A stretch of DNA of 64,000 nt. Origin: Candidatus Terrybacteria bacterium RIFCSPHIGHO2_01_FULL_48_17. GTDB lineage: Bacteria > Patescibacteriota > Minisyncoccia > Terrybacterales > 2-01-FULL-58-14. The position numbers were made by a program, and so were the translations under genes. The notes beneath the pieces were generated by a model. It was not told where the DNA came from and ran no database searches. It saw nothing but the letters and a program-made list of their open reading frames with translations. Location: assembly GCA_001822835.1 (NCBI GenBank), contig MHSS01000004.1, positions 7,186 to 71,185 of the forward strand, in the 5' to 3' direction. Shown one piece after another: positions 5,264-62,835 of this stretch. Within the stretch, counting starts at the first letter, position 1; each line of letters starts with the position of its first letter.

Positions 5264-5336
5264 GCGCCCATAGCTCAATTGGCAGAGCAGCTCCCTCTTA
5301 AGGAGACGGTTTCAGGTTCGACTCCTGATGGGCGCA
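5264..5336 (+). tRNA. tRNA-Lys (anticodon CTT), no encoded CCA
   Basis: acceptor GCGCCCA/TGGGCGC, anticodon loop CTCTTAA, T-arm TCAGGTTCGACTCCTGA. Confidence 0.8.
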
Positions 5337-6872: not shown

Positions 6873-6956
6873 GCGCGGGTGGCGGAATTGGTACACGCGC
6901 AGGCTTGAGGGGCCTGTGGGCGAAAGCCCTTGGAGGTTCGAGTCCTCTCCCGCGCA
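6873..6956 (+). tRNA. tRNA-Leu (anticodon GAG) with long variable arm, no encoded CCA
   Basis: GCGCGGG...TGGCGGAATTGGTA D-arm typical of Leu, anticodon loop TTGAGGG, variable arm TGGGCGAAAGCCCTTGG, acceptor CCCGCGC. Confidence 0.75.
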
Positions 6957-57960: not shown

Positions 57961-58485
57961 TCATGGCCAGGGACGGTTCCCTTTTAACGCGATCCGCTGC
58001 GCGCGCGCGATAATCTCTTTTACTACTTCCGGCCGGTCTACCTGCTCAAACGTAAACACGTTTAACTCGCCTGCAGTTTGCGCGCGAATAGTTCCAAAAT
58101 GAAGTAGGGTTTCCACAAGACCTCGTTGTTCTATCGTAACATCCTGCAGTCGTGAGAGATTTAACTCCGCAACCGTGCGGTTAAACATGCCCTTTTGTTC
58201 AATATGTACAATCCGTTCGTTGGTAATAATAAAGACGTCGTAATAATAGTTAATCATGCCGGCAAAGAGCCATAGCCATACCGTCCATTCAAAAAACCCG
58301 GAAAGAAACACATACGGCGTGATAAGCGCGCCACGAAGGATTTCAAGTTTGGGAGCCGCAAGAATTGCTGCGCCAAAAAGCGGCCCAAGCAGCAAAAGAA
58401 GCGCGGCTGCCCAAGTTGCGGCAAATACAAACCACGTTTTTCTTCGAACGGCTAAAATATCTTCATTCTTGTGGAGTTCAATCAT
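57961..58485 (-). CDS. bacterial PH domain (YdbS/YdbT-like) membrane protein
   Basis: two TM then PH-like domain. Confidence 0.65.
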   Translation of the reverse strand: MIELHKNEDILAVRRKTWFVFAATWAAALLLLLGPLFGAAILAAPKLEILRGALITPYVFLSGFFEWTVWLWLFAGMINYYYDVFIITNERIVHIEQKGMFNRTVAELNLSRLQDVTIEQRGLVETLLHFGTIRAQTAGELNVFTFEQVDRPEVVKEIIARAQRIALKGNRPWP

Positions 58486-58523
58486 TGGTTAGCAAATAGG
58501 GATTAGAGAATAGAGAATAGGGG

Positions 58524-58745
58524 CTATTGTTGGAGGAGTTCGGGCAGGGAGCTCCAGGGAGTGGCAAGAAATGATGCAAGAATCAGAATAGCCCAAACAA
58601 TGGTGCCGACAAGAAATAAAACAAGCAATTGCCTCGAACGGTCGCCCTGGACCGCATATTTTTTAATATGGTATACGATGGCTGCAGAAACTGCGCCAAA
58701 AAATAAAAGACCCAAAAGCAGAAAAGCGGCGGCGAGGAAAAACAT
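58524..58745 (-). CDS. small two-TM membrane protein
   Basis: 73 aa hydrophobic; flanked on both sides by GGGAATA-type repeats (58493-58524, 58753-58786). Confidence 0.4.
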   Translation of the reverse strand: MFFLAAAFLLLGLLFFGAVSAAIVYHIKKYAVQGDRSRQLLVLFLVGTIVWAILILASFLATPWSSLPELLQQ

Positions 58746-58785
58746 ATTCTATAAGGGAATAGGGAGTAGGGAATAGGGAATAAAA

Positions 58786-59814
58786 CTAGAAGAGCTTCGT
58801 ATTTCTGTTGTCAGGGGGTTTGAGACCCAGGTGTTCCCAGGCCTCGGCCGCTGCTACGCGTCCTCTCGGGGTGCGCAGCACGTATCCGATTTGCATAAGA
58901 TATGGCTCGACAAAATCAAGGAGCGTATCCTCTTCTTCAGAAAGCGAGGCGGCGAGCGCCTGGATGCCGGCTGGCCCACCCTTAAATTTTTCTATAAGAA
59001 TACGCAGGTATTCCCGATCGAGCTTATCGAGCCCTTTTTCGTCTATTTCCAGCATCGAAAGCGTCCGTTCGGTAGTGACGTCGTCGATGTTTGGCGATTT
59101 CGTGCCACCTTCAACTTGCGCCACATCCCGTGCGCGTTTTAAAAGCCGGTTGGCAATGCGAGGCGTTTGGCGCGCGGCTTTTGCGATGCGTTTTTTCGCT
59201 TGCGCGTCCAAAGATACCCCAAGCAATCGGGCGGATCGCCCAAGGATTTCTTCAATTTCGTCATCCGTATAAAAATCTAAACGAAATGCCTGACCGAATC
59301 GTGATCGGAGGGGGGAAGACAAAAGCCCTACGCGCGTGGTCGCGGCGATTAATGTGAACGGCGGAAGATTCAATTGCAGTGTACGCGCAGCTGTGCCTTT
59401 GCCAAGAATAATATCTAGCGTCCGCGCTTCCATCGCGGGGTACAGCACCTCCTCCACCATGCGGGGAAGTCGGTGGGCCTCATCGATGAAAAGCACCTCG
59501 CCTGGTTCAAGATTTGTAAGTATGGACGCAAGATCACCAACGCGTTCGATGGCGGGGCCGGAAGTTACGCGCATGGTTGCTGTCATATGTTTTGCAATAA
59601 GATGTGCGAGCGTTGTTTTCCCAATACCCGCGGGACCGTGCAGTAATATATGGTCAAGCGTACCTTCTCGTAAGCGAGCGGCTTGTATGGCGATAAGCAA
59701 ATTTTCTTTTGCCTGTTTTTGGCCCACATATTCCTCGAATACTTCTGGGCGAAGCGTTAATTCAAGGGTCGGATCTTGCGCTAAAGGGGCGCGAGGGCGT
59801 TCGCTTTTTGGCAT
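58786..59814 (-). CDS. ruvB: Holliday junction branch-migration helicase RuvB (start chosen at MPKSERPRAP; the track's 59979 start reads through a structured RNA region)
   Basis: ...LRPEVFEEYVGQ, Walker A GPAGIGKTTLA, Walker B LFIDEAHRL. Confidence 0.9.
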   Translation of the reverse strand: MPKSERPRAPLAQDPTLELTLRPEVFEEYVGQKQAKENLLIAIQAARLREGTLDHILLHGPAGIGKTTLAHLIAKHMTATMRVTSGPAIERVGDLASILTNLEPGEVLFIDEAHRLPRMVEEVLYPAMEARTLDIILGKGTAARTLQLNLPPFTLIAATTRVGLLSSPLRSRFGQAFRLDFYTDDEIEEILGRSARLLGVSLDAQAKKRIAKAARQTPRIANRLLKRARDVAQVEGGTKSPNIDDVTTERTLSMLEIDEKGLDKLDREYLRILIEKFKGGPAGIQALAASLSEEEDTLLDFVEPYLMQIGYVLRTPRGRVAAAEAWEHLGLKPPDNRNTKLF

Positions 59815-59823
59815 ATGGGATAG

Positions 59824-59852
59824 TTGACAAAAATATAGAAATCTGCTATAAT
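59824..59852 (+). promoter_or_regulatory. perfect consensus promoter TTGACA-17-TATAAT on the plus strand
   Basis: ttgacaaaaatatagaaatctgctataat. Confidence 0.6.
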
Positions 59853-59859
59853 TCTTTAC

Positions 59860-60058
59860 AGAGGAGCGTTTGGCGAGTTGCCGGCCCCGGCTCCGGTCGG
59901 GGAGGGGATATCCTGGCGGATGGGCCATCAGGCCTTGGCTCGATGGTTCCTCGAGGATATCCTTCCTCGTGGTTCCCAAGCCAAGAGATTTTCCGGCAAC
60001 TCGCCGAGCGTTTCTTTCGATTCGTCCCTCTTTGAGGGGCGATCTTTATTTTATTTTG
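59860..60058 (+). ncRNA. candidate structured small RNA of about 190 nt (6S-like architecture: about 20-bp terminal helix closing a structured core), ending in an intrinsic terminator
   Basis: 5' AGCGTTTGGCGAGTTGCCGG pairs with 3' CCGGCAACTCGCCGAGCGTT; internal GGATATCC palindromes; terminator CCCTC-TTTG-AGGGG + TTTATTTTATTTT. Confidence 0.4.
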
Positions 60059-61746
60059 AAAAGCTCCTCCATATCTTCAAGTGGTCCGGTGACGCGTTCA
60101 AGTTCTGCCGTATCGGTAGTGCCATCCAAGACGCGCAGCAGGCCATCCTGTTGCATGGTTACCATTCCACGTTCGGCTGCGGTCTTGCGAACCTCAAAAG
60201 TGGATGGCTTTTTAAGTGTAAGCGATTCCATTGCAGAGTCCATGGGGAATAATTCAAAGATGCCTACGCGGCCGCGATAACCGGTATTGTGGCATGCGGC
60301 ACATCCTTTTGCGTAAAAGAGCTCAAGCCCCTTTGAAAAGGTCGGCATAAGTGGCGCGGGAAGGCCCGCAAGAGCTTTTTTGATTCGACTCGTCATTTCC
60401 TCATTTAGGGTGGCGCTCGTTGCGCATTCTTTACAAAGACGGCGCAACAGCCGTTGTCCTATAATAAGCGAGAGTGCGGGCGCGATGGTTTCTGGTTTTG
60501 CGCCAAGCTCAATAAGTCGCGGTATGGCTCCTGGGGCATCGTTGGTATGGAGCGTTGAGAAAACGAGATGCCCGGTAAGTGCTGCTTGTAACGCGATGTT
60601 TGCGGTTTCTATATCACGCACCTCTCCTACCAAAACATAGTCCGGATCCTGCCGTACGATCGAGCGCAGCCCAACCGCAAATGTGTATTTAGCTTCTGTA
60701 TCCACTTGCGTCTGTTCAATTCCCCGAATGCGGTACTCGATAGGATCTTCGATCGTAATGATTTTTACTTTTGGCGTGGTGACGTGGCGTACCAAGGCAT
60801 ACAGCAGAGTAGTTTTTCCGGATCCGGTGGGACCGGTGGTAAGAATCATTCCATTTGGTTGTTTTAACCCTTCCCGAATTTTTTCCAAAAGATCTTGCCG
60901 CAGCCCAAGCTCCTCCAGGCTTAACAGGTTTCGCGGGTTTAGAATCCGAAGCGTTACAAACTCCCCGTATTTTCCCGGAAGGGAAGATGCGCGGATTTCA
61001 ATATCTTGTTGTTCTACATGGATGGTGAAGCGGCCATCTTGCGCGCGATCTCGTACATTAAGTTTTAATCCCGCAAGAAGTTTAAGGCGTTCCAGCACCA
61101 GGTTATACATTTCTTGTTCAAGCTCGGCGATGTCTTGCAAAATACCATCTATACGGAGACGAACAAGCGATTTTTTTTCTTGGGGTTCGATATGGATATC
61201 TGAGGCATCGGCAAAAAGCCCTCCTGCCAAAACAAGATTCACCGCAACTCCAAAATCTCGCGGTTCGATCTGTTGCAACAGTTTACGCAGCTCATCAAGC
61301 GCATTCAGTTGTTTTTTAAACGCTGCGATATCCGCGCTTGAGATGCTTACTTCTCCAGAAATGCGTTGGCCCCCACGAGCATATTTTTCATATTCTGAAA
61401 GAAGTTCCAAAAAACCACTTTGCGAGATAACGGAAAGTTTTGGTTTAAGGCCCTGTTGTTCAAGCTCCTCCAAAAACTCTTTTGTTTCTTTACGTTCGGG
61501 ATTGGGGGTTATGATACCAATGCCATGGTCTTCTTGGCTATACGGGAAAGCCAGGGCTTGCGTAAGCTTCTCTTTTGGATAACGGGACAACACCATGCTG
61601 TCGATAGAGACGCTTTCGTGTTGTGTAAAGGGAAGCTTGAGGCGTTGGGCAAGCTCTCGACCCCGTTCTTCCTCTTCGCGCCTGTGTAAAGCCGAGATTT
61701 TTTTTGCAACTGCATTTCGATCGTTCGTGCCGAATGTGTCTGGCAT
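60046..61746 (-). CDS. pilB: GspE/PilB-family secretion or type IV pilus assembly ATPase
   Basis: Walker A GPTGSGKTTL, Asp box, Walker B, His box, tetracysteine CxxC...CxxC. Confidence 0.9.
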   Translation of the reverse strand: MPDTFGTNDRNAVAKKISALHRREEEERGRELAQRLKLPFTQHESVSIDSMVLSRYPKEKLTQALAFPYSQEDHGIGIITPNPERKETKEFLEELEQQGLKPKLSVISQSGFLELLSEYEKYARGGQRISGEVSISSADIAAFKKQLNALDELRKLLQQIEPRDFGVAVNLVLAGGLFADASDIHIEPQEKKSLVRLRIDGILQDIAELEQEMYNLVLERLKLLAGLKLNVRDRAQDGRFTIHVEQQDIEIRASSLPGKYGEFVTLRILNPRNLLSLEELGLRQDLLEKIREGLKQPNGMILTTGPTGSGKTTLLYALVRHVTTPKVKIITIEDPIEYRIRGIEQTQVDTEAKYTFAVGLRSIVRQDPDYVLVGEVRDIETANIALQAALTGHLVFSTLHTNDAPGAIPRLIELGAKPETIAPALSLIIGQRLLRRLCKECATSATLNEEMTSRIKKALAGLPAPLMPTFSKGLELFYAKGCAACHNTGYRGRVGIFELFPMDSAMESLTLKKPSTFEVRKTAAERGMVTMQQDGLLRVLDGTTDTAELERVTGPLEDMEELFKIK

Positions 61747-61936
61747 TAGTTCTATTGTACCATATTAGACGCGGACGTACGCTGACTAAACGCTGACTTA
61801 CGCGGAATCTCACACCCACACATGATAGTAGTTTACCGTAGCGCAGGATGTGGTGAGCGTCAATCGTTTCTTGACGAATTAACCGGTTTTTGTTATCCTC
61901 ATCGTGGCAGTTTGACAATAGGAAAAGGAAAAAAAG

Positions 61937-62290
61937 ATGACGCTTTTTGAGTTGATCGAAAAGAAGTTGAGGTTTGCTTCTGTTAATACCGAGTCATGGG
62001 CGGATGTAGAAAGAGTTATCATCTGGTCTGTGCCGCATAAGCCCCGATTGGATTTTTATCACCATATGGCTCCGCGTGCCGTTACGCCCGGAGAAGCAAA
62101 GCACTTATTTAAAAACGTAACCATTAATGGGGCCTCCTCGGGAGATGACACCCTCCCTGATTTTACGGTTATCACGAAACGATTCGTGGTCTTTGTTGAT
62201 CATCGTCAGCATTCTGCGCCGAGCACATATATCGGTCCGCGCCGTACGCATGACGTACTCACAGCAGCTCCGCGTCAGCCAATACTATAA
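61937..62290 (+). CDS. hypothetical protein
   Basis: TTGACG-17-TATCCT upstream; terminator CCGCC-CCCAAAA-GGCGG + T7 at 62292-62322. Confidence 0.45.
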   Translation: MTLFELIEKKLRFASVNTESWADVERVIIWSVPHKPRLDFYHHMAPRAVTPGEAKHLFKNVTINGASSGDDTLPDFTVITKRFVVFVDHRQHSAPSTYIGPRRTHDVLTAAPRQPIL

Positions 62291-62340
62291 TCCGCCCCCA
62301 AAAGGCGGCATTTTTTTGGATCTAAGATACAATAGAGGCA

Positions 62341-62835
62341 ATGGTGACGAAAAACGATAACGAATTGGTTGCGCTTGGAAAAAAGACAGGAGAAGCCCTG
62401 CGCCAACAAAAAAACGGTCCCCTGGTTCTTGCTTTGGTAGGGGAGCTGGGTTCCGGCAAAACCACATTTGTGCGCGGGCTTGCGAAGGGCCTTGGTATTC
62501 GTGCGCGCATTACCTCGCCAACGTTTGTGCTGGCGAAACGGTATCGTGTGCCCGCGATAAGAAACAAGAAACAAGAAACAAGAAACAAACAAGATACAAG
62601 ATACAAAAAACAAGAAACAAACCGGCAATACTTTTGGCACATGGACGCGTATCGGCTAAAAGATGGGCGTGACCTTGCGGGCATTGATTTTGAGGAAATA
62701 GTAAGCGACTCCGCAAATATTGTTGCCATTGAATGGGCAAACAAAATAAAACGCGCGATTCCGAAAGGCGCGCGCTGGATTCGTTTTTTCCATTTACCCG
62801 GCAATCGCCGCAAAATAATTTTTTCGATGGAATAA
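62341..62835 (+). CDS. tsaE: tRNA t6A37 biosynthesis ATPase TsaE, with about 20-aa insertion encoded by AGAAACA heptamer repeats
   Basis: GELGSGKTTFVRGL P-loop, ITSPTF, HMDAYRL. Confidence 0.8.
   Translation: MVTKNDNELVALGKKTGEALRQQKNGPLVLALVGELGSGKTTFVRGLAKGLGIRARITSPTFVLAKRYRVPAIRNKKQETRNKQDTRYKKQETNRQYFWHMDAYRLKDGRDLAGIDFEEIVSDSANIVAIEWANKIKRAIPKGARWIRFFHLPGNRRKIIFSME
62558..62623. repeat. (AGAAACA)n / (AGATACA)n heptamer array inside tsaE
   Basis: gataagaaacaagaaacaagaaacaagaaacaaacaagatacaagatacaaaaaacaagaaacaaacc. Confidence 0.9.

Follow-up and report, generated by a model that had tools for sequence, protein, structure and literature searches.

What occupies the gap between ruvB and pilB in the 64,000-nt stretch of a Candidatus Terrybacteria genome analysed here (hereafter, the window), and does it encode an RNA? 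Patescibacteria (CPR) account for a large share of bacterial diversity and have tiny genomes; to our knowledge, almost none of their non-coding RNAs has been characterised experimentally. The initial annotation of the window had placed in this gap a candidate orphan, 6S-like small RNA gene, with closed ends and its own promoter and terminator. The features that it described are all present, well beyond chance. The questions addressed below are what structure they predict, how far this structure is conserved, and which function would suit it.

The ruvB-pilB gap

Both flanking genes are located on the minus strand: ruvB at 58786-59814 and a pilB-type ATPase gene (T2SSE family) at 60046-61746, with its stop codon at 60046-60048. 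The 231-nt gap that separates them holds all features of the candidate RNA which, read from the plus strand, is divergent from ruvB and convergent with pilB. Six RuvB homologues align to the long ruvB open reading frame from M56, so the correct start is the ATG at 59814 and not position 59979, a start that had already been suspected to be wrong. The resulting 342-aa product is the gene call in several public assemblies, an identical RuvB protein is present in GCA_001822935.1 and in Rifle aquifer assemblies, and the nearest named relatives of this protein are from Parcubacteria and Sungbacteria. The 55-codon N-terminal extension (58786-59979, minus strand), which crosses the RNA gene, has been kept in some public gene calls, for example P0001 with 380 aa. 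Three mechanical reading frames (59709-60035, 59870-60280 and 59878-60252, plus strand; 108-136 aa) all cross the RNA gene as well. No credible protein was found in the gap, in line with the earlier reading; there are just spurious reading frames entering pilB in antisense.

A set of heptamer tandem arrays (58754-58782, 58495-58520 and 62559-62622) was also observed in the window: AGGGAAT x4 immediately past the ruvB stop, AATAGAG x3.7 between two small genes, and AAGAAAC x9 within a tsaE-like reading frame (62341-62835), where it encodes a KQET-rich insert.

Promoter and terminator

The plus-strand promoter noticed initially scored 12 out of 12, with a -35 hexamer TTGACA (59824-59829), a 17-nt spacer and TATAAT (59847-59852) preceded by TG, which makes the extended -10 element TGCTATAAT (59844-59852). 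It is the sole 12/12 site in the 4.5 kb scanned (58000-62500), and its spacing predicts a transcription start at about 59859-60. The -35 box lies 10 nt from the ruvB start codon of the opposite strand in the window, and about 5 nt from it in loci L010 and L014. Promoter candidates for ruvB on the minus strand are weak, matching 8 of 12 positions at best. Among the relatives, TTGACA is also found upstream in L008, L010, L012, L014, L015, L016, L101, L106, L110, L113, L115 and L117, and TTGACA together with TGnTAnnnT at the same place is kept upstream of the RNA in all members of the subfamily to which the window belongs.

At the other end of the gap, an intrinsic terminator with its U tract covers 60019-60058 on the plus strand. 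Its hairpin, TCGTCCCTC-TTT-GAGGGGCGA (60022-60042), is followed by TCTTTATTTT, and the tract overlaps the pilB stop codon. The terminator, which the initial annotation had noticed, is specific to the plus strand: read from the minus strand, the same hairpin has no T run after it. Since the 3′ hairpin of pilB thus has no T run on its own strand, read-through from pilB into ruvB is plausible.

Predicted fold

The segment 59859-60058 (plus strand) folds with an energy of -116.3 kcal/mol vs. a mean of -75.5 kcal/mol for its shuffled versions (z = -8.1), none of 200 shuffles being equal, and the reverse strand of the same segment reaches just -88.4 kcal/mol. The RNA, from about 59860 to 60050 (plus strand), folds as a four-way junction made of a long closing helix (P1), a hairpin (P2), a long hairpin (P3) and another hairpin (P4); its predicted length is roughly 160 nt for the core and 190 nt with the terminator.

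The pairing of the two ends, which had been noticed from the letters, corresponds to P1, formed by a 5′ strand at 59860-59884 and a 3′ strand at 59993-60017. As DNA, the arms 59862-59884 and 59993-60015 are 83% Watson-Crick complementary; the other arm positions are G-T, so the RNA can form 25 continuous pairs. Following the 5′ strand, P2 (59885-59902, CCCCGGC-UCCG-GUCGGGG) is a GC-rich hairpin of 7 bp with a UCCG loop. P3 (59904-59964) is interrupted by internal loops and has the base GGGGAUAUCCU/AGGAUAUCCUU, a conserved GGA...UCC segment and a variable tip, which in the family is UNCG-like or extended to a variable degree. The palindromes described before for the GC-rich core find their explanation here: the P3 base is formed by the two GGATATCC copies (59906-59913 and 59955-59962) pairing with each other. 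P4 (59966-59987) carries GGUUCCCAAGCC, invariant in the window subfamily, and its loop sequence varies in more distant family members. The U-rich linker J4/1, AUUUU (59988-59992), is predicted to be single-stranded and leads to the 3′ strand of P1; all of these elements are on the plus strand.

Relatives of the window RNA and covariation

Contigs whose RuvB is 59-87% identical to that of the window have the same order of pilB, a gap of 230-400 nt and ruvB, and in every case the same four-helix architecture occupies the gap, on the strand that codes for neither gene. When metagenomes were scanned for a P4-plus-P1 pattern, 32 matches came up, 15 of which are this RNA (nine distinct sequences), in all cases between pilB and ruvB where flanks were available; the remaining matches were rejected as chance occurrences within coding DNA. 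All nine sequences have the upstream TTGACA and TGnTAnnnT. The four helices are kept despite substantial sequence divergence among the relatives. In addition to covariation in its outer half, P1 exists in two further variants, GAAC/GAGCUGCCGG paired with CCGGCAGUUC/GCUC in L014, L101 and L106, and GGUCGUGGGCAAUU paired with AAUUGCCCACGACC in L015, L016 and L018. P2 is always a hairpin, with a variable sequence and a length ranging from 3 to 26 bp overall and from 6 to 26 bp in the window subfamily, where up to 26 bp are reached in L010, L014, L101, L106 and L117.

In an alignment of 11 subfamily sequences (A4), 91.9% of the cells were paired, 31 of the 54 pairs had changed on both sides and none of 500 shuffles reached any of the five measures, although these statistics, and those of the second alignment given below, are somewhat inflated, as the pairs were counted on RNAalifold structures derived from the very alignments tested, and as the sequences share ancestry. 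When the 3′ partners were moved by 1-3 columns as a control, pairing fell to 41-51%. The MAFFT alignment was wrong in the 5′ half of the L015, L016 and L018 variants, for which reason covariance models were built per subfamily. The model of the window subfamily (R1) gave 126.6 bits on the window at 59863-60014 (plus strand), the window sequence being part of the model, whereas the reverse strand scored 34 bits vs. 127 for the sense strand. With independent members, R1 scored 140 bits (L113), 132 (L117), 124 (L115), 118 (L110), 60 (L023) and 52 (L019).

Two assemblies had an incomplete element. In GCA_001822935.1 (MHSY01000008.1, L002 2820-2952), which is from the organism of the window itself, a run of N within the RNA replaces P2 and the start of P3, and the pilB call is shorter (454 vs. 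566 aa); the hairpin-rich element seems to break assemblies. L007 (3804-3906) and L008 (2505-2655) have one RuvB protein in common (P0003, with 87% identity to that of the window). In the L007 RNA, 48 nt are missing between two CCCCGGCT copies, so that P2 has lost its 3′ half and P3 most of its 5′ half. This loss would be either a true deletion variant or an assembly collapse.

A wider family in Patescibacteria

For a broader view, at least 80 loci were fetched from GTDB species representatives via RuvB, most of them from distant genomes. Such sampling covers mainly Paceibacteria/Parcubacteria-type genomes, with some records labelled just 'Saccharibacteria' or 'bacterium'. A search for paired ends upstream of ruvB found an element of 145-175 nt with a P1 of 26-31 bp in nearly every Patescibacteria locus among those listed, and no such element in the non-CPR loci among the matches listed. 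In this main family the RNA is about 142-165 nt long. A typical element consists of an inner P1 CUCUAAGCAAUC/GAUUGUUUAGAG, a short P2, a P3 with AGGACG...CUAUCCU and a P4 hairpin, followed by a U run, with junction linkers of 0-2 nt. An alignment of 32 main-family sequences (A5) had 93.5% of its cells paired, with double changes in 28 of 49 pairs and no equally good result in 500 shuffles; slid controls paired at 36-47%. Conserved positions of A5 include a G-U pair of P1, present in 30 of the 32 sequences, and a tandem U-G/G-U of P3. P1 is continuous, with 95-99% of its cells paired in A4 and A5. Loss of the pairing in relatives, the outcome that the initial annotation had named as speaking against an RNA, was looked for, and the pairing held in both alignments.

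The model built from A5 (R2) matched 62 loci among those listed, once per locus and with E-values of about 1e-5 or better from a shortened calibration, and it reached L018 as well once the filters were switched off. These 63 loci are all of the listed ones that have at least 200 nt upstream and do not belong to named non-CPR taxa; in the loci of named non-CPR taxa among those listed, R2 had no match. In 61 of the 63 loci listed, ruvB has the RNA immediately upstream of it, encoded on the other strand. The two exceptions, L028 (5903-6057, plus strand) and L054 (4135-4289, plus strand), have it downstream of ruvB and on the ruvB strand, at a distance of 150 nt or 1.9 kb; judging by this position, the RNA has stayed near ruvB after rearrangement. 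The other neighbour is pilB in most but not all loci, hence the link with ruvB is the tighter one.

With the members of the window subfamily, R2 reached 9-14 bits at best and does not reach the window RNA directly. Both R1 and R2 match the intermediates L016, L018, L019, L020 and L023, and the proposed homology between the subfamily and the main family rests, transitively, on these intermediates, the shared architecture and synteny. The RNA of the window is not the orphan that it had been supposed to be: on these sequence comparisons, it is a member of a family located beside ruvB in every Patescibacteria genome sampled, among the loci listed.

Upstream regions of the wider family had some features of their own. 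Main-family loci such as L085, L051, L064-L066, L069 and L093 have two extended -10 elements on opposite strands, about 30 bp apart and 40-60 nt upstream of P1. These are placed back to back, TGCTATACT being read in the direction of the RNA and TGCTATAAT in that of ruvB, and jointly form an inverted repeat; such pairs imply that the predicted transcripts of the RNA and ruvB are divergent and overlapping. Moreover, in L015, L016, L018, L019, L023, L032, L039 and L082, a small GC hairpin and then a U run occur between the predicted promoter and P1. This terminator-like element could serve for attenuation, form a tiny transcript of its own or stabilise the 5′ end.

The RNA strand

The two strands of the element are far from equivalent. 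Of 66 members, 65 have the more stable fold on the strand opposite ruvB, with an average advantage of 17.5 kcal/mol; this strand has about 10 G-U pairs per member vs. 3 on the other strand, including the invariant ones in P1 and P3, and its model scores are three- to fourfold higher. Together with the promoter and the terminator, this asymmetry identifies the plus strand of the window as the RNA strand. From all of this sequence evidence, it is highly probable that the gap contains a real, separately transcribed RNA gene, and the proposal of a stand-alone structured small RNA on the plus strand, with its own promoter and terminator, is well supported.

Comparison with known RNA families

In Rfam 15, no family matched the RNA of the window or eleven family loci at the gathering threshold or, beyond chance-level matches, at E <= 10. 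The sole gathering-threshold matches in the 64-kb window were three tRNA genes (2615-2687, 5264-5336 and 6873-6956, plus strand). The 6S models had no match at E <= 10 in window positions 59700-60200 and L085 2720-2930, nor at E <= 1 in ten family loci. The Rfam models of Y RNA, SRP RNA, RNase P RNA and tmRNA gave no match either, and ARAGORN detected no tRNA or tmRNA and no T-loop/D-loop signature; the earlier view that the RNA is neither SRP RNA nor tmRNA nor RNase P RNA is consistent with these searches. SRP RNA, whose domain IV hairpin has a GNRA loop and conserved symmetric and asymmetric loops, was rejected because of the missing model match and the absence of the conserved domain IV features from P3. 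RNase P RNA was rejected likewise, there being no model match; it has a conserved P4 core and about 350 nt, compared with about 160 nt here. For 17 Parcubacteria genomes, neither ffh nor ffs was detected (PMC4508563; Nelson and Stegen, 2015).

The msr-msd RNA of retrons is similar in having terminal inverted repeats around several hairpins. It was discarded since no reverse transcriptase gene is located downstream of the window RNA, where the terminator is followed by pilB in antisense. No copies of the RNA came up in scans of viral contigs, on which ground a phage-borne element was rejected. Three readings of its parts were dropped as well. As an antisense seed, the P4 loop would pair with its complement CTTGGGAAC, which is no commoner in the window than by chance (19 matches vs. 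15.2 expected), and the loop varies outside the subfamily. In a tertiary pairing between the P4 loop and 'UGGG' of P3, the partner varies while CCCA is fixed. By inspection, K-turn and GNRA-receptor readings of the P3 internal loops fitted poorly.

More general likenesses exist with several classes. Y RNAs (YrlA) and other RNP scaffold RNAs also have ends that form a long stem, a multi-helix module opposite to it and variable peripheral lengths. However, the window RNA has no Y RNA model match, no T- or D-loop and no Ro/Rsr gene among its called neighbours, and it is linked to ruvB. The raiA, OLE and ROOL/GOLLD types are likewise defined by structure and covariation only, phylogenetically restricted and of open biochemical function, but differ in architecture, size and host lineage, and the near-invariant position beside ruvB is a feature of the present RNA. 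Four helices with linkers of 0-2 nt are shared with the tRNA-like cloverleaf and with perfect four-helix junctions (hairpin ribozyme, U1 snRNA), as is, for the cloverleaf, the arm order of a short, a long and a third hairpin; in contrast to these, P1 here has 20-31 bp and there are no conserved tRNA nucleotides, CCA end or catalytic loop motifs. The literature searched contained no description of this ruvB-linked RNA and none of a 6S RNA in CPR. As judged from its sequence and predicted fold, the structured RNA family is new, fitting no known family or architecture.

Possible function

The reading that we prefer, with a probability of about 0.45, is that of a stable, trans-acting RNA which would bind protein in a ribonucleoprotein-type complex and is a candidate housekeeping RNA. 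A variable periphery around a conserved core is typical of RNP scaffolds. In this family, a fixed core (the junction, the inner P1 with its G-U pair, the P3 loops and P4) is combined with variable tips, which favours recognition by a protein through shape together with some fixed nucleotides. The partner would recognise a surface made of the conserved elements, namely P4, the junction, 10-12 bp on the inner side of P1 and, in P3, the internal loops together with the GGA/UCC segment. As the lengths of the P2 and P3 tips are free to vary, these tips are proposed to be exposed spacers. The long helix at the ends would protect the RNA from exonucleases and, in most family members, also acts as the terminator stem. 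As every member sampled has kept the RNA, apparently in a single copy per genome, it must do something important in these organisms.

The leading specific rival is that the RNA acts as a functional analogue of 6S RNA, binding the sigma-70 holoenzyme as an open-promoter mimic in which P1 would be the downstream duplex, P3 the upstream arm, and P2 and P4 the strands of the bubble. It is kept in this place on account of the 6S-like proportions and the lack of any 6S RNA reported for CPR in the literature searched, but we regard it as unlikely. A 6S RNA is described as a rod about 200 nt long, in which bulges break up the two arms and the central bubble has relatively little structure; the 5′ side of the bubble is open and acts as the template, its 3′ side contains a hairpin in some cases, and in the 6S-1 RNA of B. 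subtilis this hairpin is accompanied by a weak one predicted on the 5′ side (PMC8876501). The main family has a closing helix of 26-31 bp, a 5′ side of about 13 nt with a hairpin of just 3-4 bp, an apical arm of 56-70 nt with internal loops and a 3′ side of about 25 nt with a hairpin, an arrangement for which 6S-1 offers a parallel. Like 6S RNA (RF00013 and relatives) and Ms1, the ruvB-linked RNA would be a stand-alone, probably abundant transcript of 150-200 nt from a housekeeping promoter, with both ends in a long closing helix; it is lineage-wide and single-copy per locus, with a consensus promoter.

The resemblance ends with the details of the fold. Apart from the missing 6S model match even at E <= 10, P2 covaries as a helix in both alignments, with 7 GC-rich base pairs in the window and up to 26 bp elsewhere, and a strand folded in this way would be blocked as a template. 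The linkers of 0-2 nt leave almost no unpaired nucleotides at the junction of the main family and so no open bubble, and P1 is free of the bulges of 6S arms, the internal loops being in the apical arm P3. The main-family RNA is also shorter. As a result of the P2 helix, the nearly closed junction and the bulge-free P1, the RNA fails the structural definition of 6S and should not be filed as such. Of the 6S-like character assigned to it initially, the overall layout is retained; the consensus fold is a closed four-way junction and not a rod with an open central bubble.

A less probable rival, and quite a doubtful one, is a cis-acting regulator of ruvB and perhaps pilB, in which the RNA would be strongly transcribed across the ruvB promoter and work by promoter occlusion, polymerase collision or antisense pairing. 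Its strength is in the locus: the RNA is divergent from ruvB and directly upstream of it with few exceptions, which is a tighter link than that with pilB; the -35 box is within 10 nt of the ruvB start codon in the window, and the minus-strand promoter candidates of ruvB are weak; the read-through transcript made plausible by the missing T run after the pilB hairpin would be fully complementary to the RNA; and many main-family loci have the back-to-back extended -10 elements. Given the near-invariant linkage and the overlapping divergent promoters, a cis or locus-specific role could replace the general trans role. However, a role in antisense pairing or interference alone would not need a four-way junction kept by compensatory changes, with conserved G-U pairs and internal loops; the RNA is downstream of ruvB in L028 and L054; and in the main family there appears to be room for ruvB to have its own promoter, 80-250 nt away from the ATG. 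Such a cis role may also coexist with the trans role of a protein-binding RNA that we favour.

That the RNA is catalytic or binds a ligand, as a ribozyme or a stand-alone sensor like raiA or OLE, is very unlikely. The conserved multi-helix junction and invariant internal-loop nucleotides would suit such a molecule, and the conserved tandem G-U pairs could bind metal ions, but the models of known ribozymes and riboswitches gave no match, the RNA strand has no gene further downstream that could be regulated, and few single-stranded positions are conserved across all subfamilies. More speculative still is a new, Patescibacteria-specific class of housekeeping RNA whose near-perfect four-helix junction would be functionally tied to the Holliday-junction machinery, for example a junction mimic that would titrate or regulate RuvA, RuvB or RuvC; if true, it would explain why the linkage to ruvB has outlasted that to pilB. 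Finally, it is hardly credible that the gap holds no RNA gene but a DNA palindrome or a large terminator or insulator between pilB and ruvB: the long inverted repeats, and the A run and T run that flank many members and could terminate transcription in both directions, would agree with it, but not the strong G-U-based strand asymmetry, the promoter conserved on one strand or the covariation reaching three internal hairpins, which a terminator does not need.

Overall, a structured RNA at this position has a practical consequence for annotation, as the element causes over-extended ruvB calls and, it seems, assembly gaps, and it offers a new RNA class for structural study. For the biology of Patescibacteria, a link between RNA and the control of recombination and repair is possible, and the RNA may be what fills a housekeeping role that is missing in these organisms, for instance in place of 6S RNA.
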